Source: a virus (Duplodnaviria; Caudoviricetes). From it: a DNA stretch of 49,120 nt. The stretch is from positions 1 through 49,120 of the IMG/VR virus record IMGVR_UViG_3300017754_001496, one strand, 5' to 3'. Shown piece after piece: positions 3,545 through 45,557 of this stretch. The notes beneath the pieces were generated by a model. The model was not told the DNA's origin, searched no databases, and worked only from the letters and a program-made list of their open reading frames with translations. Positions within the stretch are counted from its first letter, which is position 1; each line of letters begins with the position of its first letter. The translations under genes and the position numbers were made by a program.

Positions 3545-3954
3545 GAATTGTAAAAAAGGTAAATGTAAATATGTACAGCTGTTCTATTTTATTTGTAGTA
3601 ACAAATGAGATGGGAAAGTCAGAAAAGTATTTACAAAAGAAATATGCAAAAGGAACTCTGATTCCTGGTACTCCTGCTGCAGAAGCAGAGGGTATTACTA
3701 TTACAGTAGATGGTAGTTTATACATTGTAATGATAGATGCAAAGTTTCTTAATCATAATACAATAGGTCATGAGTTATTTCATGTTACTAAGAGAATAAC
3801 AGAAGATAGAGAAATTACAGATGAAGAAACTTCTGCTTGGTTAATGGGATTTTTATGTCAAGAATTCTATGCATTCATAGGTAGTGAGAAAGTAAAAAAA
3901 GAATTTGAAAAAGTAGATAACAAAAATGGCAGAGAATCAGGACAATCAAACTAA
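3541..3954 (+). CDS. Small zincin-like metallopeptidase-fold protein
   Basis: TIGHELFHVT (HExxH, 3769-3783) with a downstream DEETSAWLMG helix that could supply the third ligand Glu. Confidence 0.6.
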   Translation: MRIVKKVNVNMYSCSILFVVTNEMGKSEKYLQKKYAKGTLIPGTPAAEAEGITITVDGSLYIVMIDAKFLNHNTIGHELFHVTKRITEDREITDEETSAWLMGFLCQEFYAFIGSEKVKKEFEKVDNKNGRESGQSN

Positions 3955-22116: not shown

Positions 22117-25100
22117 ATGGAAAATATTTTAGGAATTGACAGTGATTTAGAAAGTACTGAATCTATTGAATCTCAATTAAATTCTCCTGAGGTTGAAGCA
22201 GCAACTCTTGCTGACATGTCTACTCCTGCTCCTATTATACCTACATATGCTAGTGAACCTCAAGTAGCTGTTCCCACTGATAAAAAAGTACTTGATCCTT
22301 TTGATGTAGCATTTAATAATGCTAATAAAAAATTTGATCAAGATAGAGCAGCAGAAGTTGGATTGAGTCGTACTTACTATGACCCAAGAACTAAAGAAAG
22401 ATATAGACAAGATAGTAGTATTTATAATGATTATTATAATCCTAATGTTGACTATGAACAAGTGGCATATGATAACTGGGATAAATGGGATGCAGTAAGT
22501 ACAGGATTAGCTGGATTTAAAGAAAACTTTGCATCTTCTTATGGTGAATACTTTAGATATGATAGAGTAGCAAAAGCTATATTTAATCTTGATGCTGACT
22601 ATTTAAAACCTGATGAAACAGATTTAGATAGAATGGCTTATGAACAACGTCAAAATGAAATAAAGAATCCTATCTATTATTCACCTGGTACAGAGAATGA
22701 TTTTTTAACTAAAGGTTTTTTAGCTGAGACTATATCTAGTCTTGGATTTACTTTAGGTACACTTGGTGGAGTTGCTACAGAACAGTTAGCATTTAAAGGA
22801 ATAGAAGTAGGATTAGCTGCAACAGGTATTGGTGCAGCTGCTGTACCTGAAATAGAAGTTGCAGGAGATATAAAGTCAGCAAAAGGTCTTTCTAAAGTTT
22901 GGGATGATCTTGTTGGTATATTTACAGGTAAAGCATTAAATAGTGCAGAGTATCTTGCTCAAGAAGGAAGAATGACAGCTAATGTCATGAGAGAAGGAAA
23001 AGCATTATCATCTACAGATGATATTGTACATACAATGATTACAGATCAAAGTGTTGTAACTAATCCTGGAAAGTATGGAACTAAGTTTTGGGACAATGCA
23101 TTAAACCTTGCAACTAAAGTGCCATTTGTAGGTGAAGTTGCAGATGCAGCAAGATTATACAGAGCAGGTAAAGGCACACTTACTACAGGTGAGTTGTTCA
23201 AAATTGGTATGGGAGGATTGAGAAGAGCTGTAGGAGAATGGCAATTAGCTGCTGGTGAAGCTTCAAGTGAAGCTGGTAGTAACTATAAAGATTTAGTTGA
23301 CCAACTTAAAGATGAATATAGAAATTCTCATGGAGGGCAAGAACCTATAGGTCAAGATTTATTAAACATTAAAAACATGGCACTGAAATCTGCAGGTCAA
23401 GATTTTGGAGGAAATGTTGCCATTCTTGGTGTAATGAACAAGATACAGTGGGGTAATGTATTTGGTAAGTTTGGAACTGAATCTAAAGCTATATCAAAGC
23501 TTAGATTAGCAATGGGTCAAGAAGCATCTGAGTTAGGTATCCTTGCAGTTGAACAAGGTGGTAAATCACAACTTTATCAAAAAGGATTTTTTGGAACAGC
23601 AGGATTACTACCTAAAATATCAGAAAAATTTGGTAGAAAAAAAGCTGCATGGGAATTAGGCAAAAGTATGGTAAAAGGTGTTACCAAAATAGAGCTAACT
23701 GAAGGTATCCAAGAAAACTTACAAGATGTAGTAACTAGTGGATTAAAAGATTACTATGTTTCTCTATATAAGAAAGATCCAACTACTTGGGGAGATAGTT
23801 TTCATGAAGCACTTACTCAACAAATCAGTAAGCAAGGTTTAAAGACATTTGCATCAGGAGCACTTACAGGAGTATTTTTAGGTCCTGGTATGCACGTTGT
23901 TCAACATGCTTCTCAAGCATTTGATAAAAATGCAAGAGCTCACAAAGAAGCAGTTGCAAAAAGTGTTGAATATCTAAATACGTTATATAACTCAAAAGAT
24001 GGTAATGTTCTAAAAGAAACAATTAAGAACATTAAACTTCAAACCATGTTCAATGATGGTATGAAGGAAGGATTACAAACTGGGGATAAATACCAATACT
24101 ATAATAATAAAGACTCAGCTTTTATTCAAACCATTATGCATGCTAAGCGTACTGGTACACTGCGTAACTTTACTTCATACTTAGAAGGATATGGTAAGAT
24201 GAGTAATGAAGAGTTTAAATCAGCTTTTGGTTATTCTCCTGAAGAGTTAGGTAAATCAAGTGCAGCTGAAATAGGAAGTCAACTTGCAAAAGAAGCACAA
24301 GAATACAGTGACATATATGATCATTATCAAACTAAGTTTGGTTTAATGATGAATATGCAGGACTACATTAATGATCCTGCTGCAAGACAAAGATTTTCTG
24401 TAAAGACTAGTGCATTATTAGATGCTATAAGTACAGCAGCATTTGTTCATTCTAAATCTAATGCTAGTATCAAAAGACAAGCAGGAATAAGAGAGCGTAT
24501 TGCTTCTTATGAATCTATTGGACAAAGTTTATCCACTGCATTTGGAACAGTAGTTTCTCCTGAAAAATTAGATGATAGTGTCTTATTACTTAAAGATGAA
24601 ATTAAGACATTAAAGAAATCAGTTACTGCTGACTTAGATGAAGATCAAAAAGAAAGAACACTTAAAAAGATAGATGAAAAGCAAAGAGAGCTTGATATTT
24701 TAACTAGGATAAAATCATCAGTGTATAGACTTCAGGATATACAAGATCCTACAGACTCTGAAAAAACAATCAAAGTTTATGATACAAAAGCTCTTGATTC
24801 ATCTCATGAATCTTTTAATGCAGTTGCTGACTTAATAGCTGAGTATCTTCAGATAAAAAACAATCAAGCAGGTATTGATAATAAAGTAAGTGCTGATGAA
24901 GTTCGTCAGGCAATGAATGACATATATGATTACATGTCACTTGGTCAAGACCATCAAGAATATGTAGATGCAATGAACATGCTAAATGATTCAGAGAAAT
25001 TTGGTAAATATCACCAAAGATTAATGGATGCTCGTGTAGCTGCTCATGCTAGATCATTATATGATGACTTCCATGATTTAGCAGAAATGAGTTCAGTGGC

Positions 25101-27051
25101 TAGAAAGTTCATTGATGACAATAGAGAAAAATTTGATAAACTACTTGCTTTCTCAAATAAACCTTCTGGTACATATGAAAATATGTATGAGTTAAAGAAG
25201 ATTAATGATGAACTTGCATCTCTTTCTAATCAGGTTCTAGAAGAAAAAGTGAATGAGCGTGTCAAAGAAATGAAAGATGCAGCTGAAAAAGTAGCAGCAG
25301 AAGAAGCAATTAGAAAAGAAGAGGAAGCTAAGTTAAATAAACTTAGAGAGTCTAAGTTACCTAAGCCTTTGATTGACATGCTTACTCAAGCCCAAGATAC
25401 AAATGACTCAGATTTGTTTGCTCAAATTGATGAGTACATGGCAATGAGATATGATTTAGAAGAACTTCAGAATTTTCCATTTGAAGAAACTGACATAACT
25501 AAAAGATTAGTAAACAGATACTATGTAGATAACAATGGAAATAAAGTACGTATATCTAAGGATATTAAAATTCCATTAATTATCCCAGGCACTGACCTTG
25601 AAATCAACAATCTAGATAACCTACTCACTTATCTGTACGCATTAGAACAAAAGCTTTATGATAATCACAAAGCAGCTGAGGCTAAAGCAACAATGACAGA
25701 AGCTCAATCTAGTGCTGTTATTGAAAAAACAGATGATGTAAAAGATGACTTGGCTAATCATGTAGGTAATCCTGTAATGTTCAATGGACAAAAAGGTAAA
25801 CTAGAAGTTGAGGACAATGCTTATATAGTAAAGTTTGATGATGGCACTACAGCTAAGATCACTGATATCAAAGAAGGTGAGCAATATAAGTTTGCAGACT
25901 TTACAGAACTTAGCCCTGCATATGAATCATTAGATGAAGAAACTAAATCTGAAATTAGTTCTGGACCAAGTGCTATTACAGAAACAACATCTGATGGTAC
26001 ATTACATATTGAACTAGATGAGAATTACTTAGAAGAAGTAACAATCAATGGTATAAGATGGAAGTTAGAAAAAGATGAGAATGGTTTTGTTATAGGATTT
26101 GTAAATGAGTTCCAAAGAAAGAAGGGTAAAAAGTACAAGACATTCATCAGAAGATTATCTATAAAAGATAAGAAAGGACCAGGTATCAAATATGCTGCAG
26201 CAATCAATGAATTAATTGCTCGTACAAAAGAACTTTCAGAAGATATCAATGAATTGGTTGATGAAAGTGATGTGCTAGATGGAGCTATCAATGAAGCTGA
26301 AAAAATCATGTTTGATGAAATGTCAGCTAAAAGAAGAAGTGATGAACTAATATTAAATTATCAAATAAGTAAGATATTAAATGAAGATATTCCTAATGAT
26401 ATATTAGAAATAAAAGCTAAATTTGATAATCGTTTTAAAAGAAATCAGTTGTCCAATGATGAGCTAATAAAGCTATTTATGTGGGCAGATGATGCAGACA
26501 AAAAAATTATAAAGAAGTTTAGATTACAGTTAACTAATCCTGTGGTCAGTACTGCTAGAGCTTCTTTGAACAAAGATTATATTAATGCTATATCTGAAAA
26601 AATAAATGCAAGAGAAAGTAAAAGAGGCTCCAAGCAAGGAAGTAAAAGAGCTACAACTACAAGTGTTAAGGAAAAGAAATCAGTTGCAAAACTTACTGAA
26701 GAACTTGAGTCCAGAAAAGGCAAGCGAGGTGCGCCAAAGAGTGAACCTAAGCCTAAGAAGCAAAAGTCAAGAAAGAGAACAGTCAAATCAGAAGTAGAAG
26801 CAGTTCAAGCTGAAATAGCTTTTCCTATAGAAACTACAGAAATAACTGAGGTTACTTCAGCTGATGTAATACAAAATCTTCCTACACTAACTGGTGCAGA
26901 AAGAATTAATTCAATTCCTGCAAATAGAGTTAATCAAATAATTTCAATTGTTGATCCTTCAGCTGTACCTACAGTTGATTCATCAACTGAAACAGTTAAT
27001 ACAGATAATCCTTTTTTATCTTTACTAAATAATTATTCTTGTGAATCATGA
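22117..27051 (+). CDS. Giant ejection protein 1 (1644 aa)
   Basis: Gly/Ala hydrophobic helices, EASSEAG and TEGIQENLQ motifs, long coiled coils and a basic tail. The only Cys I find is third from the C-terminus. Coupled by ATGA to the RNAP gene. Confidence 0.65.
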   Translation: MENILGIDSDLESTESIESQLNSPEVEAATLADMSTPAPIIPTYASEPQVAVPTDKKVLDPFDVAFNNANKKFDQDRAAEVGLSRTYYDPRTKERYRQDSSIYNDYYNPNVDYEQVAYDNWDKWDAVSTGLAGFKENFASSYGEYFRYDRVAKAIFNLDADYLKPDETDLDRMAYEQRQNEIKNPIYYSPGTENDFLTKGFLAETISSLGFTLGTLGGVATEQLAFKGIEVGLAATGIGAAAVPEIEVAGDIKSAKGLSKVWDDLVGIFTGKALNSAEYLAQEGRMTANVMREGKALSSTDDIVHTMITDQSVVTNPGKYGTKFWDNALNLATKVPFVGEVADAARLYRAGKGTLTTGELFKIGMGGLRRAVGEWQLAAGEASSEAGSNYKDLVDQLKDEYRNSHGGQEPIGQDLLNIKNMALKSAGQDFGGNVAILGVMNKIQWGNVFGKFGTESKAISKLRLAMGQEASELGILAVEQGGKSQLYQKGFFGTAGLLPKISEKFGRKKAAWELGKSMVKGVTKIELTEGIQENLQDVVTSGLKDYYVSLYKKDPTTWGDSFHEALTQQISKQGLKTFASGALTGVFLGPGMHVVQHASQAFDKNARAHKEAVAKSVEYLNTLYNSKDGNVLKETIKNIKLQTMFNDGMKEGLQTGDKYQYYNNKDSAFIQTIMHAKRTGTLRNFTSYLEGYGKMSNEEFKSAFGYSPEELGKSSAAEIGSQLAKEAQEYSDIYDHYQTKFGLMMNMQDYINDPAARQRFSVKTSALLDAISTAAFVHSKSNASIKRQAGIRERIASYESIGQSLSTAFGTVVSPEKLDDSVLLLKDEIKTLKKSVTADLDEDQKERTLKKIDEKQRELDILTRIKSSVYRLQDIQDPTDSEKTIKVYDTKALDSSHESFNAVADLIAEYLQIKNNQAGIDNKVSADEVRQAMNDIYDYMSLGQDHQEYVDAMNMLNDSEKFGKYHQRLMDARVAAHARSLYDDFHDLAEMSSVARKFIDDNREKFDKLLAFSNKPSGTYENMYELKKINDELASLSNQVLEEKVNERVKEMKDAAEKVAAEEAIRKEEEAKLNKLRESKLPKPLIDMLTQAQDTNDSDLFAQIDEYMAMRYDLEELQNFPFEETDITKRLVNRYYVDNNGNKVRISKDIKIPLIIPGTDLEINNLDNLLTYLYALEQKLYDNHKAAEAKATMTEAQSSAVIEKTDDVKDDLANHVGNPVMFNGQKGKLEVEDNAYIVKFDDGTTAKITDIKEGEQYKFADFTELSPAYESLDEETKSEISSGPSAITETTSDGTLHIELDENYLEEVTINGIRWKLEKDENGFVIGFVNEFQRKKGKKYKTFIRRLSIKDKKGPGIKYAAAINELIARTKELSEDINELVDESDVLDGAINEAEKIMFDEMSAKRRSDELILNYQISKILNEDIPNDILEIKAKFDNRFKRNQLSNDELIKLFMWADDADKKIIKKFRLQLTNPVVSTARASLNKDYINAISEKINARESKRGSKQGSKRATTTSVKEKKSVAKLTEELESRKGKRGAPKSEPKPKKQKSRKRTVKSEVEAVQAEIAFPIETTEITEVTSADVIQNLPTLTGAERINSIPANRVNQIISIVDPSAVPTVDSSTETVNTDNPFLSLLNNYSCES

Positions 27052-30000
27052 GTTGTAGAATTTCATATGATGCTTTAGAGAACACACTCTTAGCTGCTTA
27101 TAAAAATGATTTTGAAAAATATAAAAATCTAGATGCAATTGTATCAGATGTATTAAGTCTTCCTATTGCGGAAGAAGCAAAAGTACATGCTGTGTGGTAT
27201 TATGCAGGTTATGTTAATCAGCTTGCTAATAATGTTACACAACTTCAAACTGATGCATGGAGTCAAGGTAAGTACAAAAGTCTTCATGACTATCTTACCC
27301 CTTCTTTATCAGGAGAAGAAAATTTCAATTATGATGAAATTTTAAATGATATAACTAGTTATTTTACTCAACCATTAGACATAGATAAAACAGAGTCTTT
27401 GGAAGATAGATTAGTGAGTATGGTTAATGACCTGTCAACACTAAGTGATGCTTCTTTAGGTGAAACATTAGATGAGATTGTTAATACAGTTATCTCTAAT
27501 ATAAGAACATTAGACCCTGTTATATTAGATCCTAATAACAGTAATAGTATTAATATTCTTAAGCTTGCTTTAGATGAGTTAAAAGGAAGACCTGATAGCC
27601 CTTATAAAACTACATCAATTAACAGATTAAGTAATATTATATCTGATATTATTTCTAACAACAATGTTGCTGTTGATTATGTAAGCATGAGAGATGCACA
27701 AGGAATTGGTAGATATAAGAACAGTGAGATTTATGAATTAAGAAAAGTAAATGGTGACTTATTTGAAGTATACTTTGATGATAACACTAAAGCTTATCAT
27801 TACTATGCACCAGGAACAGAGAATCATGAAAAACAAATAGAGTTTGATCCAACTGATCAAGTAACTACTATTTACAAAAAAACTAATGATCGTTTTGTAA
27901 ATCCTGAAACTTTGCAGTTAAGGATGCATACAGATGAAATACTTACAGGTTTAGTTATAGGAGAGTCTACTGCTAAAAATGATAGAACAAAAACAGTGCA
28001 AGAACAACTTGCAGAAGAAGCTCAAAAAGGTGCAGTATTTTATAGTTCTGTTAAGATAACAGCAAGTACTAAAAGAGAAGAGTTCAATGCTCAGCGTCAA
28101 GCTAGAATTGATGTAAACTTTCCTTTGTTAGGTAGAACATTAGAAACATCAGAAAGACCTAACCAGGACCAGGCGTTAAAGTCTGGTACAGGTGTTGTCT
28201 TAACACTATATAAACCAACAACAGGATTTACAATCACTGTTACTAACCATAGAGGTGATCTATCTTTTGATTTAGATTCTTTCACTAATCTTGCATTCTT
28301 ACGTTCAGATAATACAGTTGAGCCAGTAGACTTTGATAACCCTGATCATATGGAGTTATTAAAGTCAATGATTGAAGTAGATAGTCCTGAGTTCAGAGCT
28401 AATAGATATGAATCTATTACAGAAGAAGAACTTGAGAAATTAAAAGACTCAGCTAAAAGATATAAGGAATTTCAAAATGAAGTAACAGAATTATTAACTG
28501 GAGCAGGCCCTGTTGACATAAAAGAAATATTTTTCAAGTATTATGACTTATCTAATAATACAACTAAGATTGTATACAATGATCAAGCAAAGTCATCCAC
28601 TAATTTAAATCAGCACATTGAATCTAACAATGGTGAATTGAATGTAAAGATTCAAAACTATGATGAACAAGGAAATCCTGTAGGTGGACCTGAAAGTGGT
28701 AAGATGGCTGTAGTAATGCGTAAAGTAAAAGGTTCATGGATAATAGAAGATACTTTAGGTGAGAACCAAAAGTTAGTAGGGGAAGATGGAAAGATTTATA
28801 ATTCAGCAGAAGCTTATATTGAGAAAGAAGCAATTGAAAAGAACTTTGAAGATGCTGAATTAAACATTAAAGACTGGGCTCAAAAAGTAGCACCAAATGC
28901 TAACTCTATTTATGTAAGCTTTAAAGTAGTAGGTGATAAATTAAAACCTATTGCTGTTCCTTTGGTATATCAAAAGCAAGTTGAAAGTCCAACTGACTTA
29001 TTAAGTGCAATGGGCGCATTAGCTCATACATTTCAGAATGCAGAGATTGCAGAAGGTAATACAGTTATATTAGAACTTAAGCAAAAAGGATGGGGATTTG
29101 ATGTTCTGAAAAATAAAGAAAACAGAGACATTGCAATTGCACCTGAAATTGTAATAGTAAAACAATCAGGTGATGTCAAAACTTTTGGTATCAAGTTTAC
29201 AATGTTATCTCCTGATGAGGAGAGAAATAAATCATTCAATGAGTTTGCTAAGAAACACATGCAAATATCATTCAATCAAGATATTGTAAACAATATAATG
29301 TCTTTATCAAAGAAGGCTCTTGAAGAAGCTGGTATTACAATGCCAGAGAATGCTACAATGGAAACTGTCACTGCTTCTTATCAAAAAGCTGCAAGAAAGT
29401 TAGGAGAAGCACATCCTCTTATTCAAGAATTAAAAGTTGCGTACAATGCATTCTCAGCAGACATTAAAGCTAAGTACAATGCTGTTATAAATAGACATGA
29501 TGTTTTATTAGGCCAGGGTCAGATATCTGCTCCTATGTTTGATGAAACATTTAGAAAATATAGTTTGTTTGAAGAAAACAGATTAAAGTTAAAAACAAGA
29601 AGTGCAAAAACAGGAAATGTATTAGAGTCTTATAGAAAGTTGGACCATACAATTCAAAGTTCTTTATCTCTTACTTATAGAGATCCTCTTAAGAAAATAG
29701 TATTACCTAAGATAGTAGATAAACAAGTACTTAATAAACTAGATACTACAGGTATTGATGTTGTTGTTGAAGAGTTAGATGAAACAGATCCAGTAGATCC
29801 TTCTGTTGTAGAAGAAAAACCTGCTACGCCAACAAGAACTATAGACTTCAATGATATAGAACCTAGCAGTACTGTTGATCCATTCATGCTTGCAAATACT
29901 ATTGAATCATTTTTTACATTAAGTGAAGAAGACTTTACAAAAGAAGTGAATGCAATGAAGGCATTACTTCCTGATAGATTTCAATTTACATATGAAGGAT

Positions 30001-33000
30001 TTTCTAACTTAGATGTAGATGGACATGCTCTTGGTTATGTTCAAGGATTAATGATACACTTGAATGATACTCTTAAAGCTAAGGGTGTAGCATTCCATGA
30101 AGGTTTCCATGCTGTATTCAGAAACTTATTAAACAGTAAACAACAAGTTTATTATCTAAAAAAGGCAGCAAAAATTCTGGGTGATTACAAAACAGATGAG
30201 AAAGGTAAGTACATCACTGTAAATGGTAAAAAAGTATATGCTAATGAATTCAGACAAGAAAGAAGATACCTTCACCTTACTGATGAACAGATTAGAAATC
30301 TTATTTACGAAGAGTACTTAGCAGATTCTTTTGCTACATACATGGAGACTAATAAAGTTCCTCAAACTTTTATGCAAAAGTTATTTGCATGGCTGAAGAA
30401 ACTTTTAAATGTATTTAAGAAAGGTGGTAGAATAGACAATTTATTCTATGACATCAGTGTAGGTAAGTTCAGAACTAAAACTATTAAGGAAACAAAATCC
30501 AATGTAGAAAACATATACAGTCTATACAAAGGAAGTCCAACTATTATTTTAGCTGAAGGTGGTGTACCAGATACATCTAATCAGGAAGTACAATCAACTG
30601 TAGTTTCTGAAGTAGGTACTAAGATGGTTGCTGAAATGGCAGGATTAAGAGCACAATATCCAAGCATTGCTGCTGAAGACTTGTATGATTTTGCCGTGGC
30701 TAATGTATTAAAGGATTATAAAATTGAAGACTTAACAAGTCAAGTACCTGAGTTTGCTAAGCAAATTGAGAATGCATATGGTAATCATTATACAAATGCT
30801 AGATGGTTATTAGGTCAATTTCATAATAGTTCTGAACCTTTTCAATTCATTAACTTAACTGATGCAATTGAAAATGATAACATATTAATTGACAGAGCAT
30901 CTAGACAAGGTAAAGCACAAACAGCAATAAGCAAACTTGTTGCTGATAAATTTAAAGAAGATGTTGTTGCTGAGTTTAAAAGCTTAGATGTAATAACAGA
31001 CTTTGATGATGTAGATGAATTAATTAGTTCTTCTAATAAAGAAGATGAAGAAGTAGAAATTGGTGATAACTTCAATGACAGAGGTGCAATAGGTTTACCT
31101 CCTAATGAAGGAACAGCAGCGTTTAGAAAGTTGTTTAAGTATATACAATATGAATATACTGACCCTGTATATGGTGTAAAGAGAAAGAAAGCTGTAGACT
31201 CAGGATTAATATTCAGTACTATTAGAAAGGTTACATGTAATGTAAGCAAGGAACATGTAGTATTGAAATTAAGACAAGAGATAGACAGACTAACAAATGA
31301 GATTAATTATTATAACACTAATCTCAGAAATAAAGTTGGTGGAAGATTTACCATACCAATGGACATTGCTAAGCAAATAGAGTTGAGAAACAGTTTGCAA
31401 GCAGTGTTTGATACTCTTCATAAATTTGTTGAACTTGAAGATGTAACTGATGAAAAAGGAAATGTTGTAGAAATCCAATCTACAAAGAATGATCATATCT
31501 ACATTCAGTTTGCTAATGTGTTTAATACAATTGACATCAATCTAGCATTAGTATCATTGACTACTGAGAAAGAGTGGAGCAAAGAGAAGGCAGCAACAGA
31601 AATTACAAATCAAATATACAGACTTAATGATATTGTTATTGGTAAAGATGTTAATGCAATAAGAACTGATTTACTTAATGGAATAAGAACCATCAATATT
31701 ACTGAAGATCAATTCAAAAAAGCAAAAGAACAGCTGAGTAAAATAGAGAACATCTTTAATAATAAGAACTTACTTAAAGATACATTATTCACTGAAACAG
31801 GTTTGTTCAATGATGCTGAATTCAGAAAGCTAGTAGATGAAACTTATATTGCACTTAGTACATTTAATCTTAATATTCCATACTCAGCAATTCAACTTGC
31901 ATTAGCATATAATGTATTCAAGTTAAATGATTATAAAGCTAGTATCTTCACACCTAATAGTGATGTAAGATTGTTATTACGTAACAATAAAACATATTGG
32001 AAAGGTTTAGATAAGTTAAACTTTACTTTCTTCACTAAAATGATTCCTGATGCTGTTGATTTATCATTGAAGATGACAGCAGAAGATAAGTCAGGTAGAA
32101 GAAGTGAAACATTAGAGAAAGCTTTAGTAAGAGTAGGCTCAGCATATTTAGATTCATTAGGTGAATTCATTTTAAAGTATGACCCAACACTAGCAGGATC
32201 AGTTACAAGAAATGCAGCAGGTGATACAATCAGTAAGTATTGTAAACCAACTCCTGCATTTGTAACTATTATGAAGTTGCAAGGATTTGATTCAATTGAA
32301 CAAGGGTTAGATGAATTAATTGGTTCATACTTCTCAGGATTTGAATCTTACTTTGAAGATAACCCCTTACTAAATACAGATTCTGATTTAATTAAGGTAT
32401 TCCTTTCTAACTTTAAAGTTAGTGCTTTTGCAGGCTTTGAACATAAAGTACAAGAATTTGGTACAAACAAAACAGGTGACCCTGTAACATTCAAGGACAT
32501 TGATGATAAGTCATATGCTCTTGCTATGATGGGATTGTTTGCTAATCAAGTTGAAACTAATGTAGTAGATAGAGCAACTGGGTTAAGTAAGAAACTAAAA
32601 ACATTTAAGAAAGTACTTACTATTTATGAAGCAACAAGTACAAGTGTTGTTGTAGATGGTATTTATAAAAACTATTCTGATAAGAATGGTAACTTCAATA
32701 AAAAGAATGGATTTTCATTAATTGCTAATGACTTGTTTAAAGTGGTTAAACAAGAATATAACTTAATGAAGAAAAACTATAAGGAGTACAATGATAAGAG
32801 TGCTCCAAAGAAGTTTTTGGGTTATAACATAAATCCTGAAACAGATAGAGGTTTTACATTCAATATATTATCTGACTTCTTCCAAGTAAATGTGGAGGAC
32901 AAGTCTAAAGAGAATACAGCCAGAACAGGATTAAGAGATGACTTTTTAAAATCAGGTGCAAAAGATAATATTGAATTTGAAACATTAATGGATGCAAATC

Positions 33001-36000
33001 CTGATTTAGTTACTCAATTAATGACTGAGTTAGATGCATATGTTAATGAACAATATGGTGTATTTAAAAATAGTTTAGATGAGTTAGGTATTGTAGATGC
33101 AGATTTACCTATTACATTAGTTAGGTATAATGAAAAAGAGCTTCAAGCTTTATCTCCAGAAGACAGAGATTTAGTAAAGAGTCAAGGATCAGCTGAACAA
33201 AAGAAAAGAGCAGATGCTTTCTTAAAAGACATGTTTGCTAATAATTGGATTAATGGAATTTTTGTTAATCAATTATTTGATGGTCCTATTGCAGTTAGTA
33301 CTAAGAACTTTGCTGATTACTTTAAACGCCAAAAGACTGGAGCTGCTGCTGGTGAAAATATCTATAATCCTCTAACTAAGCAAACTCATTATAGAGCTTC
33401 TGTTATTCCAAAAATAGTAGCATACATTGATAATGAAGATTTAACTAAGCCAGTTCAATTTACTCCTCATTTGGGAGAAGATGGTAAACCACTAGAATCT
33501 AATGTAAAAATAGATTTGTTTGATGGTCAGTCTGTCAATCATCTTAACAGAAGAATAAAGATTGCAGAAGCAGAAGGTAAACTAGATCCTGAATCTGCTA
33601 AGTTTCTTCGTAGCATGAGATGGACTACACAATCTTCTAAAGAATATTCTGATGGTATTAGAAAGTTAAGAGATGCTGGTATTGTATTTAACAGTTTAAA
33701 GACTGTATCTGCATCAGGTATGTTTTATATTAAGCAATCTGAGCATACTCTTTTGCGTAAAGATGTGAGTATGCTTAAAGCAGAATACAGAACAAAAGAA
33801 GCAAGAGCACTTGCAGAAAAAGAACTTAGTGAACTATATGAATTAGCAGATGCATATGCTTGGAATTTAGAAAATGGAATCGCAGATGTTAATTCTGAAA
33901 CTGATGAAATATATGATTATGATGAATTGTATAAGCAAACTATAGCTAGAATTCATTTTTACTTTGAGCCTATAAAAGGTAGGGAGATACTTCATAATCT
34001 ACTTAACTCAATGGAAGTACACAGTGTAGACCAGTTAATGGATCCTACAGCTAGTAAGAGAGCAATAGTAGAACCTACTAAAGCTGATTACTTAGAAGCA
34101 TCTAGTGAAGATTATTATTTTAATCTATCAGATTCTTTATTCTATGTACCTAATGAATTGACATATCTTCAAGTAGAGACAGGTAAGATTGCTAATTCTG
34201 TAACACAAGCTATCCAGCAAAAGTTACTAGTAATTGCACAATTAGATCCTAACTCTGAAGAGTATAAGGCAATTAAGAAAGACATTGATGGATATCAGAA
34301 AGGATTGGCTGATGCAGTGTCTGCACAAACTAAAAAGATGATGAGATTACTTAGCGTTTCTGATAAAGAAATGATAGGTAAAATCTATACTAGTATTGCA
34401 AATGGATTACGTGAACAAGGTGCTCCAACTACAATGCTTCAGTACTTTGAATTGAACCCTGATGGTTCTCCTGTATATGAGCCTAATCTTCCTGTATTAG
34501 GTGAGACATTGGTGTATTACTTTACTAGCTTATTTAACAATAACATTTTTGATAAGAAAGTAGAAGGTAGAAAGTACTTCCATGTTAGTTCATTTGGATA
34601 TAACATTATTGAGCATGATGGTAAAATCATCACTCAAGATGAATACAAAAAGAACCCTGGCAAATACAAAGGAGCTACAACAAGACAACCTTCTGTTAAG
34701 AAACAAGAAGATGGTACTTATGTAGTAGAAGTAATTGTACCTAAGGAGTTAAGAAATGTAGATCAAAAGTTCTTAGAACAATATCTATCAGAATTCTTTG
34801 GTACTCGTATCCCTACAGAGGATAAGCGTTCAATGATTGTAGCTAAAGTTGTTGACTACATTGATGAAGCTTATGGTGCTACAATCATAGTTCCTTTCCA
34901 AGTACACATGCTTTCAGGATCTGACTTTGACATTGATGCATTATATGCTCATGTTAAATCTTCTTACTATACTGCTGATGGTGAAAGAGTTCCATTTGGT
35001 AACTATGACCACTACATGAAGAAGTATGGTATGACTTTGAAAGAAGCTAAGTTCATGGAGTATCTTCATTATATAAGTAAAGATGAAGGTGTTAAAGAAC
35101 TAGTAGATCTTGAAGTAGATAAGATTAAAAATCAAGCAGGATACAAACAAGAGCAAGCAGTTAGATTTGGTGAAGCATTTGGAGGAAAGATTAGAACTTA
35201 CTTTGCTGAGAATGCTGGATTAGTAGAAAATAAAGATGGTGATAAAAAAGATTTAGCAGATGACTTTAAAAGAGTGATCGCTACATTTAATGTATTACAA
35301 GCATTAAAAGAAGCAGAGCTACCAACTACTCCATCTGAGTTAGAATCATATACTCGTGAAACAGGATCTACTCCTGTAGTTAATGTTATCATGAATGAAA
35401 TTCTTCAACATAAGATTAACATTCTATCTAATGAGAAAGTATTTGAAAACTTCTCAGCAAATCCTGATAACAGAGCTGATGTAGCTGTTGATCCATATAA
35501 GAGATTAGTGGAGAGAAGAGGTATGAGTGAAAAAGATTTATATAACAAACAAAATCTTTACTCACCTGCTGCTTTGATGATGGCCAGATCTCTTAACTCA
35601 CAATCTAAAGATTCATTAGGTATTGCAGCAAGCTTTAACAAAGGTATTAGTATGTTAGCTACTGTTGGTGCAGAATTAAAAGAAGCTGTTGGGTACTTAT
35701 ATACAGACTCAGGTGTTATCACTACAGATAAAATAGTAGACAATGCAGTTCAGTTAGTAGGAGGTTCTATTGGTTTATTTGCTGATGCTCCTAAGAATCC
35801 ATATCCAGGCCCATTACATCTTAATACAATTACTACTCCTGTAATGAATACTATGTTTGCATTAGGCTTCCCGCAAGGAGCAGCAATCATGTTCCAATCA
35901 TTACCTATAATTGTTGATTTAGTTTCTGATTACAATCAAAACTATGGTAGTGCCTATAAAACATCTAATCAAAGAAAGACAAGTTTTAATAAGTTCTTAA

Positions 36001-38639
36001 ATGGTGTATACAAGGACCAAATTGAAGAATTGTTACCTGCTTTGTTATCAGCAGGAATCTTAACAGAAACTGAAAATGGTGGATACTTTTTTAATAAAGA
36101 AGCATACAAACTTAAGTGGACAAATAATGTAACACCAGGTAATCAATTAGAAAACTTTGGTTTTGAATTAAAAGCAGCTGATGGTTCTCCATTATCTAGA
36201 GAAGTGCAAGACTTTATTCTTATGAAAGAATTCATGGAATACTCTGAAGTTGCTAATCAAATTAGTTTTAAAATTACAAGACTAACTGATACATTAAAAG
36301 GTCTAAAGCCTGACATGGAAGTATTTGATAGATTATTCAATACTTATAAAGAGGCATATCTTGGAAGTTCTTCAATTGTATTTACTTCTGGTACAATGAC
36401 TAAATTGTTTGAACAGTATCCTGTGTTAAAGAGTTCTTACGAGTCATTAGACTTTATGGATAAAATGTCCAAGTCAATGTTCTTAGAAAGAACTAGTTTG
36501 ATGAAAGGTTTAACTGGATTACTTACAACTGGTTTATATGGATATGATTCTTCAGAACTTAAGAAAGATTTAAAAGCATTCATTGCATTACAATTGCAGA
36601 AGAGTGCAATGGAAAAGAATCCAACAGGGTATTTTGCAAACAGATATTTAGAATTATTAAAACCTGAAAACTTCTTAAATGCTGATATACTAGCAGACTA
36701 CGAGAACATAAAAACTAAATATCCTGATAATGCTTTCATAAAACAATTAACAATTAGAAATGTAGGTGATAGCTCTAAAGGAATGAGAGTTTTAGAAATG
36801 GTATCTTCTAAACTGAATAAGAATCAGAAGAATGATATTCACTCTGACTTCATGGCTCTTCTTAGAGATAACATTGATATTAAAGATAGAGCATTGAGAT
36901 TGGCTTATTATGGAATGATCAAGTCTGGTGCTAAGAAAGCCAGAGGTGGTTACTATGAATTATTACCTGCATCTATATCTAAGTTGATGAGTAATGCATT
37001 GTTCTCATTAAGAGAAGACTTAGTTGCACTTGATAAATCTGTAGCTAAGAAGAAGCAACAAAGTATGGAGTTTGTTGATGACAATCCTCTTCTATCAGAA
37101 GATGTTAAAAGAGAATATCGTGAAAAGATGGATGAGTTGATGGGTAAAAACTTCAGTGGTATTACTTTACAGCAAATCATTACAGAAGCTGTTTCTAAAA
37201 TAGTAAGTGTTCACTTAATCAATACACCAGAGGCTGATTACAAGAAAGTAATCAATGCATCAAGAGCTAAAACTAATGAACCAGTTAGTCAACAAGATGT
37301 TATTAACTTAGTTAAAAGCATTACAGGTACTTACTCTGGTAATATAATTACAGATACAGGTAGTATACCTGCTATTGGATTACCTATTGATACTAAGTAT
37401 AGAATGAAAGTTGGTGAAATAGAATTATTTGTACCTACTGGAACTAACTTGAAACTTAGTCTTAACTCTAACATGAGTGAAAAAGACAAAGCATTATTGA
37501 GAATGACTAGTATATATTCAGAACAAGATAAGTTTGCATTCCCTGTATACAAGAAGAACATCTATGGTCAAATGCTTGTGTTAAAAGCTATTGATAACAA
37601 AAGTATAGGAGAAGCATTCATTGATACATTATATGAAAATGGAATGTCTAATACTTCTCAAATGCGTATCACAGGTTTGTCTGCTGAGTATGAAGTAGTT
37701 CCAGAGCAAGGAGCAACTAATATCTCTCCATTGGCTTTTGGAATGAATGAAGGTGCTACTATCAGAAATATGACATCTCGTAAGATTCAGCAATTAAGTT
37801 CTGTAAGATCAGAAGCATTACCTTCTTCAATGAGAATTGTTAGTAATGAAAATAGAATGTATGAGGTTAAAAATAGGAACCAACCTATATCTAATCACAT
37901 CAATAAAACATATGTTAAAGATGATAACAGTACAGTTTCTGTTGGAGATAAATTTACAGCTATTGATTACTTCAGAGATAAGGTATATCTTAAGCCAATG
38001 AATGCAGGTAATGGTACAGTGTACAGTGAAGTTGATTTACTAGCTCAAAAGTTAGGAAGAACTAATTGGGAAATGATAAAAGCAGATCCTGAGTTTGAAG
38101 ATTTTTTTGCTGGAAAATCTAAGATATATTTGTATCAGTTACAAAATAATGATAACTTATCTGTGAATACTAAAAATCAAACTGAAGCTTCAAGTCAAGA
38201 AGGTACTACTTTAAAAGGAAAAATGACATTTAGTTATGGTTCTAATAAAAGAGCAGATGTTACTACTGCTACTACATTTGATGCTATATTAAATGGAGAA
38301 AGAACTGCCACTACAAGATACGAAAGTCAAGGTAATATAGACTATTGGAAAAATGCTAAAGTAGGAGACATTATTACTTGGGAATCAGGAGATGGTAGAA
38401 CAGTTGATGTTGTAGTTACTAAAGCTCTTCATAAACTAAAAGGTTCTGGAAAAACACCAGAATCATGGTCTAAATTAGAAGGATGGTCTGTAGAGTATTT
38501 TAATACAAATGTTAAACCTAAAGTAGAGGAGGCATGGCAAATAGAATATAAGCTAAAACCATCAACCAACAGTAATAATATCACAGATAAAGATATTGAT
38601 GATACATTAAATGATTTAACCTGTAACGGAGGAGAATAA
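27048..38639 (+). CDS. Giant virion-packaged DNA-dependent RNA polymerase (single-chain, two-barrel, phi14:2 gp66-like), 3863 aa
   Basis: Catalytic SGSDFDIDAL (DFDID at 34923-34937), upstream GTRIPTEDKRSM and LFDGQS motifs, zincin HEGFH (30096-30110) with EEYLAD, and a C-terminal ASCH-like domain. Confidence 0.92.
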   Translation: MSCRISYDALENTLLAAYKNDFEKYKNLDAIVSDVLSLPIAEEAKVHAVWYYAGYVNQLANNVTQLQTDAWSQGKYKSLHDYLTPSLSGEENFNYDEILNDITSYFTQPLDIDKTESLEDRLVSMVNDLSTLSDASLGETLDEIVNTVISNIRTLDPVILDPNNSNSINILKLALDELKGRPDSPYKTTSINRLSNIISDIISNNNVAVDYVSMRDAQGIGRYKNSEIYELRKVNGDLFEVYFDDNTKAYHYYAPGTENHEKQIEFDPTDQVTTIYKKTNDRFVNPETLQLRMHTDEILTGLVIGESTAKNDRTKTVQEQLAEEAQKGAVFYSSVKITASTKREEFNAQRQARIDVNFPLLGRTLETSERPNQDQALKSGTGVVLTLYKPTTGFTITVTNHRGDLSFDLDSFTNLAFLRSDNTVEPVDFDNPDHMELLKSMIEVDSPEFRANRYESITEEELEKLKDSAKRYKEFQNEVTELLTGAGPVDIKEIFFKYYDLSNNTTKIVYNDQAKSSTNLNQHIESNNGELNVKIQNYDEQGNPVGGPESGKMAVVMRKVKGSWIIEDTLGENQKLVGEDGKIYNSAEAYIEKEAIEKNFEDAELNIKDWAQKVAPNANSIYVSFKVVGDKLKPIAVPLVYQKQVESPTDLLSAMGALAHTFQNAEIAEGNTVILELKQKGWGFDVLKNKENRDIAIAPEIVIVKQSGDVKTFGIKFTMLSPDEERNKSFNEFAKKHMQISFNQDIVNNIMSLSKKALEEAGITMPENATMETVTASYQKAARKLGEAHPLIQELKVAYNAFSADIKAKYNAVINRHDVLLGQGQISAPMFDETFRKYSLFEENRLKLKTRSAKTGNVLESYRKLDHTIQSSLSLTYRDPLKKIVLPKIVDKQVLNKLDTTGIDVVVEELDETDPVDPSVVEEKPATPTRTIDFNDIEPSSTVDPFMLANTIESFFTLSEEDFTKEVNAMKALLPDRFQFTYEGFSNLDVDGHALGYVQGLMIHLNDTLKAKGVAFHEGFHAVFRNLLNSKQQVYYLKKAAKILGDYKTDEKGKYITVNGKKVYANEFRQERRYLHLTDEQIRNLIYEEYLADSFATYMETNKVPQTFMQKLFAWLKKLLNVFKKGGRIDNLFYDISVGKFRTKTIKETKSNVENIYSLYKGSPTIILAEGGVPDTSNQEVQSTVVSEVGTKMVAEMAGLRAQYPSIAAEDLYDFAVANVLKDYKIEDLTSQVPEFAKQIENAYGNHYTNARWLLGQFHNSSEPFQFINLTDAIENDNILIDRASRQGKAQTAISKLVADKFKEDVVAEFKSLDVITDFDDVDELISSSNKEDEEVEIGDNFNDRGAIGLPPNEGTAAFRKLFKYIQYEYTDPVYGVKRKKAVDSGLIFSTIRKVTCNVSKEHVVLKLRQEIDRLTNEINYYNTNLRNKVGGRFTIPMDIAKQIELRNSLQAVFDTLHKFVELEDVTDEKGNVVEIQSTKNDHIYIQFANVFNTIDINLALVSLTTEKEWSKEKAATEITNQIYRLNDIVIGKDVNAIRTDLLNGIRTINITEDQFKKAKEQLSKIENIFNNKNLLKDTLFTETGLFNDAEFRKLVDETYIALSTFNLNIPYSAIQLALAYNVFKLNDYKASIFTPNSDVRLLLRNNKTYWKGLDKLNFTFFTKMIPDAVDLSLKMTAEDKSGRRSETLEKALVRVGSAYLDSLGEFILKYDPTLAGSVTRNAAGDTISKYCKPTPAFVTIMKLQGFDSIEQGLDELIGSYFSGFESYFEDNPLLNTDSDLIKVFLSNFKVSAFAGFEHKVQEFGTNKTGDPVTFKDIDDKSYALAMMGLFANQVETNVVDRATGLSKKLKTFKKVLTIYEATSTSVVVDGIYKNYSDKNGNFNKKNGFSLIANDLFKVVKQEYNLMKKNYKEYNDKSAPKKFLGYNINPETDRGFTFNILSDFFQVNVEDKSKENTARTGLRDDFLKSGAKDNIEFETLMDANPDLVTQLMTELDAYVNEQYGVFKNSLDELGIVDADLPITLVRYNEKELQALSPEDRDLVKSQGSAEQKKRADAFLKDMFANNWINGIFVNQLFDGPIAVSTKNFADYFKRQKTGAAAGENIYNPLTKQTHYRASVIPKIVAYIDNEDLTKPVQFTPHLGEDGKPLESNVKIDLFDGQSVNHLNRRIKIAEAEGKLDPESAKFLRSMRWTTQSSKEYSDGIRKLRDAGIVFNSLKTVSASGMFYIKQSEHTLLRKDVSMLKAEYRTKEARALAEKELSELYELADAYAWNLENGIADVNSETDEIYDYDELYKQTIARIHFYFEPIKGREILHNLLNSMEVHSVDQLMDPTASKRAIVEPTKADYLEASSEDYYFNLSDSLFYVPNELTYLQVETGKIANSVTQAIQQKLLVIAQLDPNSEEYKAIKKDIDGYQKGLADAVSAQTKKMMRLLSVSDKEMIGKIYTSIANGLREQGAPTTMLQYFELNPDGSPVYEPNLPVLGETLVYYFTSLFNNNIFDKKVEGRKYFHVSSFGYNIIEHDGKIITQDEYKKNPGKYKGATTRQPSVKKQEDGTYVVEVIVPKELRNVDQKFLEQYLSEFFGTRIPTEDKRSMIVAKVVDYIDEAYGATIIVPFQVHMLSGSDFDIDALYAHVKSSYYTADGERVPFGNYDHYMKKYGMTLKEAKFMEYLHYISKDEGVKELVDLEVDKIKNQAGYKQEQAVRFGEAFGGKIRTYFAENAGLVENKDGDKKDLADDFKRVIATFNVLQALKEAELPTTPSELESYTRETGSTPVVNVIMNEILQHKINILSNEKVFENFSANPDNRADVAVDPYKRLVERRGMSEKDLYNKQNLYSPAALMMARSLNSQSKDSLGIAASFNKGISMLATVGAELKEAVGYLYTDSGVITTDKIVDNAVQLVGGSIGLFADAPKNPYPGPLHLNTITTPVMNTMFALGFPQGAAIMFQSLPIIVDLVSDYNQNYGSAYKTSNQRKTSFNKFLNGVYKDQIEELLPALLSAGILTETENGGYFFNKEAYKLKWTNNVTPGNQLENFGFELKAADGSPLSREVQDFILMKEFMEYSEVANQISFKITRLTDTLKGLKPDMEVFDRLFNTYKEAYLGSSSIVFTSGTMTKLFEQYPVLKSSYESLDFMDKMSKSMFLERTSLMKGLTGLLTTGLYGYDSSELKKDLKAFIALQLQKSAMEKNPTGYFANRYLELLKPENFLNADILADYENIKTKYPDNAFIKQLTIRNVGDSSKGMRVLEMVSSKLNKNQKNDIHSDFMALLRDNIDIKDRALRLAYYGMIKSGAKKARGGYYELLPASISKLMSNALFSLREDLVALDKSVAKKKQQSMEFVDDNPLLSEDVKREYREKMDELMGKNFSGITLQQIITEAVSKIVSVHLINTPEADYKKVINASRAKTNEPVSQQDVINLVKSITGTYSGNIITDTGSIPAIGLPIDTKYRMKVGEIELFVPTGTNLKLSLNSNMSEKDKALLRMTSIYSEQDKFAFPVYKKNIYGQMLVLKAIDNKSIGEAFIDTLYENGMSNTSQMRITGLSAEYEVVPEQGATNISPLAFGMNEGATIRNMTSRKIQQLSSVRSEALPSSMRIVSNENRMYEVKNRNQPISNHINKTYVKDDNSTVSVGDKFTAIDYFRDKVYLKPMNAGNGTVYSEVDLLAQKLGRTNWEMIKADPEFEDFFAGKSKIYLYQLQNNDNLSVNTKNQTEASSQEGTTLKGKMTFSYGSNKRADVTTATTFDAILNGERTATTRYESQGNIDYWKNAKVGDIITWESGDGRTVDVVVTKALHKLKGSGKTPESWSKLEGWSVEYFNTNVKPKVEEAWQIEYKLKPSTNSNNITDKDIDDTLNDLTCNGGE

Positions 38640-38645
38640 TATACT

Positions 38646-41600
38646 ATGTCAAGTTGTTCAATCATAAGAAATCCAGAAGATGGAAAAATAATAAAAGTGA
38701 TGGCTCCTAATGGTAAGCAATCACTTTTATTTCAGAATGCTTTAAATGCTTTAGGAGATCAAGAATTAGCTCTAAGAGTTTGGGCTAGAGCATATACATC
38801 TCCATTCAAAATTAGATATGGTGATTGGGAAAAAGGACTAACAAATCTAACATTAGATTATAATGGTGAGCCTAGTTTAGGCACTGTGATGAATCTTAAA
38901 GAAGGTGTTAACAGAATTATTCAAGCAGAGTATTCTCACTTCTATAGTTTTCAACCAGGAAGAGAGCAATGGACTGATTTAAAGTATGTTCATTCTTTTA
39001 TTAATCAGATTACTAAAAGATATCCTGACTTAAAGTTTACTATAAAAACAGATCCTCTTAGACCAGGAATGGGATTACCTGTTCTTGTACCTACTTTCAA
39101 AGACCTTACTGTTAGATATAACAGAGAAGAAATTGAAAGAATGAAAGTACCTGTAAATAAATTCATGGGTAAGTTGATGAGTAAGTTCCCAGGCCTTACT
39201 TATGAATGGATTAAACCATCTGATTTAAAACAAGAGGAACATGAAAGATCTGTTGGTAGTATTAGATCTTATGTAAAAAACAATAAGATTTATTTAGTTG
39301 AGGGAAGAGTTACACCTGAAGATGGAATAGAAGAAATCATGCATGTCTTTTTAGAGATGCTAAGACAATCTAAGCCAAACTTATTTAAAGGATTGTTTGA
39401 CAATACTTATGCAGATGAAAGATATGCTGCTGATTATTTGAATATCAAAAATTGGTATGACAGCAAAGGAGGTGACAATACAGATGAAGTAAGAAGTGAG
39501 TTCTTAGCTAAAATCATGGCTAAAGCAATGAAGCAAGAACTTGAGGTAAATCCTGATGGTAGACCTGCTTCTATGTTTGGTAAACTAATTCAACGATTTT
39601 TAGATTGGTTAGCTTCTGTTTTAGATACAGAAAGCATTAGACCAGGCCAAGCTATAAAAGATATTATAGGATATATTAATTCAGAAGATCTTATACTTCC
39701 TCTACCTGAGGATAGCTACATGTATTATAGTTTAGATCCTCCTGCTGATAGCAACTTTGATCCAGAAAGTAAAGATGATGCTGCTAAAATGAGTCCTAGA
39801 TTCAAGGGTAAAACAGCTAGAGAACTTAACATTGAAAAGATAAATGAAGGTATAGCAACCTTAAAGATGTTAAGAACAAATGTAAACTTGGGTGCAAGGA
39901 ATGTAATTGACATAATGATTCAAAATAATGAAGAGTTAGTCCAAGCATTAGAAAATGGTGATAGCTTTATTAGTGTAACTAATTATAAAGGAGCTCAAGA
40001 TACAGAAAGTACAAAAAGTAAATCTACTGAGCTGGGTGCTAATACTGGTAACTTCTTCCATGATTTAATGCAGAAGATACAGATTGATACAATCCTACAA
40101 AAGAAATCAGCAATAGATATATTTTTAGTTGAAAACTACTTTGAAGATTTCTTAAAAGATCATAAAAACTATATTCTATTTAATAACTATGATCCTGCGA
40201 TGCTCAAAAATATGGGGATGCAGATTGCTGTAATGTTACAAGGATTAGCTAATGAAGGTAAAGTAGCATTACCTGAAACTTCTATTGGAGTTAAAGATGT
40301 TGATGGTACTTTAGTATTAGGGCGTCTTGATATTATGGCAATTGATCAAAGAGGTGTCACAGAAGTAATTGACTTAAAAACAAAACTAAATCCAGGAATA
40401 GCTACATCCATCTTCCCTGATACATTATTCAGAAGACCATTTGACTTCAGAGGTGATTTTAAAGAAGGTGTTGCTGATGAGTTTACAGAGTTCAGAAATA
40501 AATCTGACTTAAATACTTATCATATACAGTTAGCAATTTATTCTGAGATGCTAAAGAGATTAGGAATCAGAGTAAACGAAGATGGACATCAAATTTTTGC
40601 ACTAACATTTAGTACAGCATTTGATGGATCAAAACCTTCAACCTCAACTAAGTTTGAACTTACTGGTTTTAACATTAAGAAGTATACTTATGGTAACTTG
40701 TCAACTGATCCTAGAATGTTTGACAATATTAATAAAGCTGCTGCTTATAGATTTGATCCAGATTCTAAAGTAAAAGCTACAGAAGAAGAGGAGGTAATTA
40801 CAGTTAAGGAAAATCCATTTAGTTCTTTATCAGATGATGCTAAAAATAACTTAATTGAAAAGTTAACAGCACTTGCAGAAGAACAATTAGCTGCAATTGA
40901 TAAAGAGATAAAAAAGGTAGATAATAATGAAGACATAGATATTGATAAGAAGATTGAAATTCAACATAGGTTAACCAGACAGAAAAGTTCAATCCTTGAA
41001 ATCAAACAGAATCTTAAAAATATCCAAGGTATCAGTGAAGAGAAAGTATCATTCAACAAAGCATTGGTAATCAAACTTGCATTAGATACATTCCAAAAAG
41101 AAATTGATAACATCAATGATAGAATAAAAGCATTAGAAGTACCATCTACTTTTAATCTTAAAAATCTACAAGATACTTATGTCTTGAAAGAACTTCAGGA
41201 CAACACTGAATCATTAGATAACATTGCAGAGTATTTGAATCTATTCATAGGTACTATATCAGCAATGGAATTAGATAATGATGTCAAAGCTAACATTACT
41301 AACTACTTAAGTTTAGCTGTTAACAAAGCCAACAACATCTCTATCAATTATGTTAATACAGGCAAGAAAGTAATGAAGGCCATATTAATGGAATCAATTG
41401 GTGAGAAAAAATTTGAATCAGTTTTTGGTGATATGAAGAAGGTTCTCCAGCCTGAACTTGATTGGATTAATAGAATGATTGCAAAGATGGAAGCAGGTGA
41501 AGCATCAACTGATCCATTCTTTAGTAAAGTGGGTAGACTTATAAATAACTTCTTCAGTACAACTAAGAATGATAAAGATAGATTGGAGTCTTTAAAAGAA

Positions 41601-45407: not shown

Positions 45408-45557
45408 ATGGCTAAAACTAAATCAAGTAACAGCATAGTTAAAAGGTTCATTAAGAAAGCTAAAGTCAGAAGACCAGGGGTTCATTCTAAGAAGAAAACT
45501 AGTGGTTTAAAGACTAGCAAGAACTATAAGAAACTTTATAACAGACAAGGCAAATGA
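45408..45557 (+). CDS. Small basic protein, 49 aa (absent from the ORF track)
   Basis: MAKTKSSNSIVKRFIKKAKVRRPGVHSKKKTSGLKTSKNYKKLYNRQGK*. It fills the gap and overlaps the next gene by ATGA. Confidence 0.75.
   Translation: MAKTKSSNSIVKRFIKKAKVRRPGVHSKKKTSGLKTSKNYKKLYNRQGK

Follow-up and report, generated by a model that had tools for sequence, protein, structure and literature searches.

Three consecutive genes in a 49,120-nucleotide stretch of viral DNA (the window: Duplodnaviria; Caudoviricetes; IMG/VR record IMGVR_UViG_3300017754_001496, positions 1 to 49,120) encode giant proteins, P1, P2 and P3, that together have only eight cysteines (Cys) in 7755 residues. Four of these lie within five residues of the ends where one protein faces the next, and the outer ends of P1 and P3 have none. 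By sequence comparison, this facing-Cys rule holds across Crassvirales. A head-to-tail protein link between P1, P2 and P3 is well supported because the terminal Cys are conserved, occur only at facing ends, are lost in fusions and are present on new pieces. We propose that docking and interchain disulfides probably tie the three products into one N-to-C thread, or virtual polyprotein.

Facing cysteines in the window

The two junctions are formed by the following proteins and residues.

22117..27051, + strand: P1, first chain piece, 1644 amino acids, whose only Cys is C1642; homologue of crAss001 gp47
27040..27042, + strand: C-terminal Cys1642 of P1, upstream half of junction 1
27048..38639, + strand: P2, middle piece, virion RNA polymerase, 3863 amino acids, with Cys at both ends
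34923..34937, + strand: DFDID catalytic motif of RNA polymerase, P2 residues 2626-2630
38646..45392, + strand: P3, last piece, 2248 amino acids, with N-terminal Cys4 and a C-terminal end lacking Cys; homologue of crAss001 gp49

P2 is identified by its sequence as a crassvirus virion RNA polymerase. It matched 64 phage records by tblastn, and the 60 listed are all crAss-type, including crAss001 gp50 and p-crAssphage gp44. Profiles of P1 and P3 match crAss001 gp47 (92.8%, E 3.8e-7) and gp49 (94.7%, E 5.7e-8), respectively, in hhalign comparisons. Pfam and PHROGs searches gave no useful family for P1-P3, and a phmmer search of the P2 core against PDB returned no match.

P2 carries C3 (27054-27056), C1397, C1732 and C3859 (38622-38624), and P3 carries C4 (38655-38657), C1615 and C2107. 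These positions, and the total count with its four residues at facing ends, agree with an initial annotation of this DNA, which had suggested that terminal Cys could chain the three products. The chance that eight randomly placed Cys would fill all four five-residue facing ends is 2.9e-10, an estimate whose five-residue windows were picked after the pattern had been seen. C3 and C3859 of P2 are also invariant columns in an alignment of 30 sequences with a mean identity of 22%.

The P1 and P2 genes overlap by ATGA, and the P2 and P3 genes are separated by 6 nucleotides. The residues after the last Cys of P2 are encoded by a GGAGGAG run (38628-38636), located about 10 nucleotides before the P3 start, that could be a ribosome-binding site for P3.

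Conservation across Crassvirales

Chain members in other genomes were picked by homology, not by Cys content. The environmental set of 70 loci is what remained of 73 after removal of L005, which is on the same contig as L008, and of L051 and L062, where an apparently frameshifted copy of a P1+P2 fusion has a downstream part without an N-terminal Cys. Clustering at 90% identity gave 54 groups, in which both facing Cys are present at all 78 readable junctions; with clustering at 70% identity the count is 69 of 69. Outer ends in the clustered set have no Cys (0 of 40 P1 starts and 0 of 39 P3 ends), and the internal background is 62 Cys in 327,555 residues. The same pattern is found in 14 named genomes representing Steigviridae, Intestiviridae, Suoliviridae and Fpv3, where both Cys occur at 17 of 17 junctions and outer-end Cys at 0 of 14 on each side, two of these genomes being counted from a later in-frame Met than the annotated start. 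In phi14:2, every one of the four Cys in 5398 residues is at a facing end. The facing pairs are C1797/C3 and C2179/C3 in phi14:2, and gp47 C2339/gp50 C5 and gp50 C2404/gp49 C5 in crAss001. Conservation of terminal Cys in homologues, on which the initial annotation had staked its proposal, is thus observed, and at facing ends only.

Downstream in-frame Met codons in crAss002 gp33 (L002:16062-16158) and the cr110_1 polymerase (L004:16584-16626) give the Met-Ser-Cys start seen in relatives, and the annotated starts of both genes are probably too early.

Across 102 junctions, the Cys lies 1-5 residues from the C-terminal end of one protein and at position 3-7 of the next. Both codons are used, with TGT/TGC counts of 58/28 at C-ends and 69/13 at N-ends (four N-ends were not read). 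Of 86 C-ends, 3 have a His within 20 residues, as have 11 of 86 N-ends, a frequency not above that of the protein bodies.

A C-terminal Cys is carried by 181 of 184 polymerase homologues of at least 2000 amino acids, which comprise 63 and 121 sequences from two collections that are not independent. Among split polymerases with both terminal Cys, 64 of 112 have exactly those two. Several polymerases (P0004, P0006, P0009, P0020-P0022 and P0027) carry extra Pfam matches, for example PF00075 and further families that we take to be helicase-type, and keep both terminal Cys. In two other entries, a source gives PF00075 the name ribonuclease HI.

Fusion, fission and rearrangement

A P1-like region is found at the start of 57 of the 184 polymerases, and none of these 57 has a Cys in its first 20 residues; an N-terminal Cys is present in 114 of the 127 polymerases without a detected P1 part. 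Of the P1-fused polymerases, 38 have one Cys in total, and only four have any Cys in residues 500-1700. Direct hidden Markov model searches between the fusion N-termini and P1 gave no match in either direction; the two are related by profile-profile comparison (97.6%, E 3.8e-12), and an iterated profile links them with an E value of 1.1e-59. In P2+P3 fusions from five Intestiviridae, only the N-terminal Cys column is common to all, and the other Cys columns are shared by at most two members.

All nine extra chain pieces of the clustered set (149-744 amino acids) contain two Cys and no more, one per end. At six loci, gaps of about 570 base pairs between polymerase and P3 contain open reading frames (ORFs) of 193-195 amino acids with one Cys at each end. 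Small ORFs of 149-326 amino acids inserted between the polymerase and P3 genes, each having two Cys in all and one at either end, are located as follows.

L020:12879-13475
L030:8218-8808
L031:21121-21711
L032:16121-16717
L040:20149-20595
L042:21154-22131

These inserted ORFs end in the tail type carried by the unsplit polymerases of related loci.

Whether terminal Cys appear only where genes are split had been posed at the outset, and the answer is that they are lost in fusions and found on new pieces. Since a Cys pair occurs at each split examined, is absent from outer ends and is gone on fusion, the pair appears to substitute for a peptide bond.

The rule also survives changes in gene arrangement. 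In crAss001 and DAC15, the first chain gene lies on the opposite strand and the rule is kept. csAssE-Sib, which we take to be a member of the Epsilon group, keeps the rule although unrelated genes separate its chain pieces.

L077: 12739-19365, 19989-22247, 30424-36826: csAssE-Sib chain pieces, two with a P3-type docking domain

The last of these pieces is annotated as two overlapping ORFs of 281 and 1885 amino acids. The Epsilon group is said to be without the transcription block (PMC7886860; the published sources cited here were available in part, and what is said of them refers to that part). Opposite-strand genes, interposed genes and the use of both Cys codons together place the signal at the level of protein rather than DNA. 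Of the gene-ordered chain that had been envisaged, the order stands, but it is an order of proteins and not of adjacent genes, because crAss001 and DAC15 keep the chain across strands.

30096..30110, + strand: HEGFH zincin-like motif in P2, residues 1017-1021

The zincin is placed in the first protein in phi14:2 and p-crAssphage (phi14:2: bioRxiv 10.1101/2020.03.07.982082). With the motif in P2 here, the split point has shifted between lineages.

Predicted docking domains and tails

Each N-terminal facing Cys in the window belongs to a predicted folded domain.

27048..27368, + strand: predicted all-helical N-terminal domain of P2, with Cys3 on a short extended N-terminus
38646..38909, + strand: predicted N-terminal docking domain of P3, residues 1-88, a beta-hairpin plus helices, carrying Cys4
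38541..38636, + strand: acidic C-terminal tail of P2 ending in Cys3859, upstream half of junction 2

The P2 domain was modelled by AlphaFold2 with a mean predicted local distance difference test score (pLDDT) of 88.7, and C3 is the sole invariant column among 33 homologues of this N-terminus. Foldseek, the one method run, found no match to the model in PDB at E<=0.001, and a known fold is possible. This domain is a likely docking site for the P1 tail.

Residues 1-88 of P3 were modelled with a pLDDT of 90.5. The best match among 48,161 chains is 6VR4 (phi14:2 polymerase residues 2-93; VIA Z 6.7, root-mean-square deviation 2.7, 71 residues aligned; next match Z 3.2), a Z score that, being below 8, does not settle the matter by itself. 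Run on just the P3 domain, Foldseek gave nothing significant, with 6VR4 at the top (E 0.18). A profile of the domain matches the phi14:2 polymerase N-terminus (E 7e-7), crAss001 gp49 (1.4e-6) and two csAssE-Sib pieces. By profile and model, the P3 docking domain is homologous to the phi14:2 polymerase N-terminus, and its homologues on the polymerase, gp49 and the csAssE-Sib pieces show that one domain is used at different junctions in different phages. No conserved His is present in either N-terminal alignment.

P3-type domains were compared at 59 distinct loci, drawn from 89 examined. An N-terminal Cys together with an upstream gene ending in Cys is found at 47 of these by loose distance criteria; the others include three without a readable neighbour, three that are internal and lack Cys, and two that are ambiguous. 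The core of the domain also occurs inside long ORFs of L125, L160 and L171, where the first strand, which bears the Cys, is missing.

Among 52 junctions outside the P1/P2 set, helical tails accompany the matching N-terminal type in 23 cases, neither is present in 27 and two are discordant, such that tail and domain types agree at 50 of 52 junctions, using classes drawn after the data had been seen. Co-folding of the P3 domain with the 32 C-terminal residues of P2, a check that the initial annotation had recommended, scored 0.49 compared to 0.01 for the best of three controls; the runs had at least 67% of their contacts in common, and the pLDDT of the partner was 59 or more. This is weak support: 116 of 157 solved complexes pass the mark, as do 2 of 215 mismatches, but those passing at 0.60 or below comprise only 18 solved complexes and both mismatches. 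Contacts were not given, and hence there is no S-S distance.

Neighbouring genes

CrAss_Ring_1/2 Pfam matches (1752-3544) lie upstream of the cargo block, and a virion structural protein (3926-8761) is encoded upstream of P1-P3. The gene directly before P1 serves as a control outside the chain.

19332..22106, + strand: C2, a probable cargo protein of 924 amino acids without Cys, assigned by position only

In C2-like homologues, none of 34 N-ends and none of 35 C-ends has a terminal Cys. The C2/P1 junction is as tight as P1/P2 and P2/P3, yet has no Cys.

Three large ORFs upstream of C2 (8758-19322) contain repeated [FYMAK]xxGG motifs in 4, 15 and 4 copies, and two of them lack Cys. These ORFs are candidate C1-like cargo, the repeats perhaps serving for targeting; C1 is assigned by position only in this window. 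Elsewhere, in three of ten named genomes (crAss002, p-crAssphage and Fpv3), the probable C1 protein has a Cys close to one of its ends, with no evident partner, while C2 ends have none.

L002:5367-7040: probable C1 gene with an end Cys
L003:5042-7615: probable C1 gene with an end Cys
L079:54-1850: probable C1 gene with an end Cys

Downstream of P3, a 555-amino-acid ORF (45554-47221) with a Fib_succ_major domain and seven Cys lies outside the chain.

A proposed disulfide chain and its alternatives

In the arrangement we favour, two interchain disulfides, P1 C1642 to P2 C3 and P2 C3859 to P3 C4, would create a thread of 7755 residues. An acidic or amphipathic upstream tail is predicted to dock on the small folded N-terminal domain of the next piece, and docking would pick the partner because tail type and domain type change together. 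Docking would come first and be bond-free, in the reducing cytoplasm and procapsid, and oxidation of the thiols would follow once the particle is mature, on the pattern of cyanophage A4. The chain would be packaged in equal numbers, its pieces would stay connected while passing partly unfolded through the tail, and reduction in the host cytoplasm, the least certain step, would free the polymerase. The initial annotation had offered a disulfide or a shared metal as the joint. The link itself is well supported, and the disulfide is favoured over the metal on the grounds that each end has one Cys, His is rare nearby, A4 provides a precedent and other interchain disulfides occur in crAss001 virions. 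More tentatively, the tail/domain pairs could constitute an addressable linking code whose interchangeable members are sealed by disulfides. A polymerase cargo of ~0.85 MDa could then be split, fused, scattered over the genome or extended, yet still be packaged, and then injected, as a single ordered covalent thread and unclipped in the host cytoplasm.

Several observations weigh against this disulfide chain. A disulfide in crassvirus cargo is proposed from the sequence pattern and by analogy with A4, which is one unrelated case without homology. In crAss001, gp47, gp49 and gp50 are without clear density by electron cryomicroscopy (PMC10172136). Recombinant phi14:2 gp66 transcribes alone in dithiothreitol (bioRxiv 10.1101/2020.03.07.982082), and thus the link is not needed for catalysis. 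Three of the 184 polymerases (P0126, P0127 and P0180) lack the C-terminal Cys. Among the 127 polymerases in which no P1 part was detected, 13 have no N-terminal Cys, although ten of these are shorter than 3100 amino acids and are probably truncated, and the three of 3900-4200 amino acids may be undetected fusions. Internal Cys are tolerated, with four here and up to 14 in cr271_1. At four of the 59 loci with P3-type domains, a Cys is present but the gene directly upstream has no terminal Cys. The co-fold score is in the weak band (<=0.60) and comes without contacts. Finally, the tail and domain classes were defined after the fact, and a quick tree built from 40 P3 sequences requires about four changes of pairing; their matching therefore amounts to only a handful of independent events.

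In another reading, the ends dock head to tail but become bonded only on ejection, within the host periplasm; the disulfide would there keep together refolding pieces whose thiols had been free in the particle. Assembly is cytoplasmic and many hosts are anaerobes, which would suit such a late bond, and all of the comparative Cys counts fit it equally well. Periplasmic oxidation has, moreover, been given as the reason for Cys avoidance by N4-like ejection proteins (PMC11445570). This alternative is nonetheless unlikely, given that the A4 bond is visible inside the mature capsid (PMC12002296) and that other interchain disulfides exist in crAss001 virions (PMC10172136). A metal ion shared by the facing Cys, for example in a Cys4 zinc site built from two copies of each chain, would be compatible with the reducing cytoplasm at assembly and could draw ligands from the acidic tails. 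However, each end offers a single Cys, a sequence check found no CxxC in P1-P3, so that no arrangement of the zinc-hook type is seen, His is as scarce near the ends as described above and is not conserved in the two N-terminal alignments, and A4 has a plain disulfide (PMC12002296). These features render a metal site improbable. Slightly less likely still is the use of the Cys in other chemistry (thioester ligation, protein trans-splicing or lipidation) or as small packing residues of a non-covalent docking pair. RNA and protein splicing have been reported for disrupted crassvirus genes (PMC7886860), and co-folding speaks to a non-covalent interface only. Against this, with the Cys at positions 3-7 of the N-terminus and 1-5 from the C-terminal end, there is no free N-terminal Cys and too little space for a signal peptide or intein halves, and mere packing fits poorly with the retention of Cys on docking folds that are unrelated to each other, in proteins that elsewhere avoid this residue.

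Split inteins were considered separately and rejected: one intein half would be expected behind the N-extein and the other ahead of the C-extein Cys, and at the 102 junctions there are only 0-4 residues beyond the C-terminal Cys and 2-6 in front of the N-terminal one. That the terminal Cys act as independent tags, close each protein into a ring or form homodimers is very improbable. The split polymerases with exactly two terminal Cys would suit a ring, but first and last pieces have one terminal Cys each, and the Cys of a junction vanish together on fusion. Hardly any weight can be given to the idea that a DNA or RNA signal at the junction, such as one for translational coupling or recoding, gives rise to the Cys codons incidentally. 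Although the genes here overlap or lie 6 nucleotides apart, both codons are used, spacing varies and the equally tight C2/P1 junction is without Cys; genomes with opposite-strand genes or with genes lying apart contradict it. Chance is likewise rejected.

Implications and comparison with known systems

The proposed disulfide chain bears on the loading and ejection of the giant polymerase cargo of crassviruses, which is partly unfolded and has to be handled in the correct number and order. The cargo order of crAss001 is likely set by packing and by interactions among proteins (PMC10172136), and our findings name candidate linking residues for such an order. If true, the chain would explain how the block can comprise two, three or four genes, or have them on both strands. 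It may also bear on the shifting protein boundaries reported for the Zeta group (PMC7886860). Terminal Cys further provide a sequence rule for spotting chain members, including easily missed pieces of 149-195 amino acids. No description of the facing-Cys pattern in crassviruses was found in the literature searched, most subscription papers lying outside it; terminal Cys are unmentioned in the available text of PMC10172136, one supplement, bioRxiv 10.1101/2020.03.07.982082, PMC7886860 and PMC10136315.

The cargo proteins of the cultured crassviruses crAss001 and phi14:2 are homologous to P1-P3 and have the same terminal Cys. P1-P3 share with the crAss001 gp47/gp50/gp49 block a DFDxD polymerase, flanking gp47 and gp49 homologues and a location after the ring, muzzle and cargo C1/C2 genes, of which C1 and C2 are assigned by position only. 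P2 is larger (3863 amino acids) than its crAss001 and phi14:2 counterparts and contains the zincin-like motif itself. In crAss001, gp47, gp50 and gp49 were found in virions by mass spectrometry, interchain disulfides were described for tail and portal-vertex proteins, and both reduced and untreated virion samples were run (PMC10172136). Likewise, gp65, gp66 and gp67 of phi14:2 are virion proteins, and cargo proteins are fused in some phages (bioRxiv 10.1101/2020.03.07.982082; PDB 6VR4). By analogy, P1-P3 would also be packaged and ejected.

Schitoviridae (N4, DEV) likewise eject a giant, Cys-depleted polymerase, with Cys at 0.00075% in gp71 homologues (PMC11445570) compared to about 0.02% for internal Cys here. 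Their polymerase is T7-like and has essentially no Cys, and no terminal pair is described in the available text.

The closest likeness is to the cyanopodophage A4 (Anabaena phage A-4L), where a cleft in gp26 accommodates the C-terminal helix of gp27, and a gp27-gp26 disulfide was seen by electron cryomicroscopy inside the mature capsid (PMC12002296; PNAS 2025). We checked the sequences and found that the only Cys of gp27 is residue 1715 of 1717 and the only Cys of gp26 is residue 5. Thus A4, like the window, has adjacent giant ejection proteins with near-sole Cys at facing ends. No homology was detected between gp27 or gp26 and P1-P3 or the P3 docking domain (best profile E 0.044, blastp E 0.057), and the resemblance is a working likeness, not family membership. 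In the available account, the A4 bond is a stabilising contact and crassviruses are unmentioned (PMC12002296). That account describes one link between two proteins and no polymerase, whereas P1-P3 would have two or more links and several docking types. Unlike in A4, the crassvirus link is gained and lost with gene splitting, and its tail and domain types are interchangeable. To this kind of link, described in a single unrelated phage, crassviruses would thus add a form with multiple joints and with docking pairs that can be exchanged.

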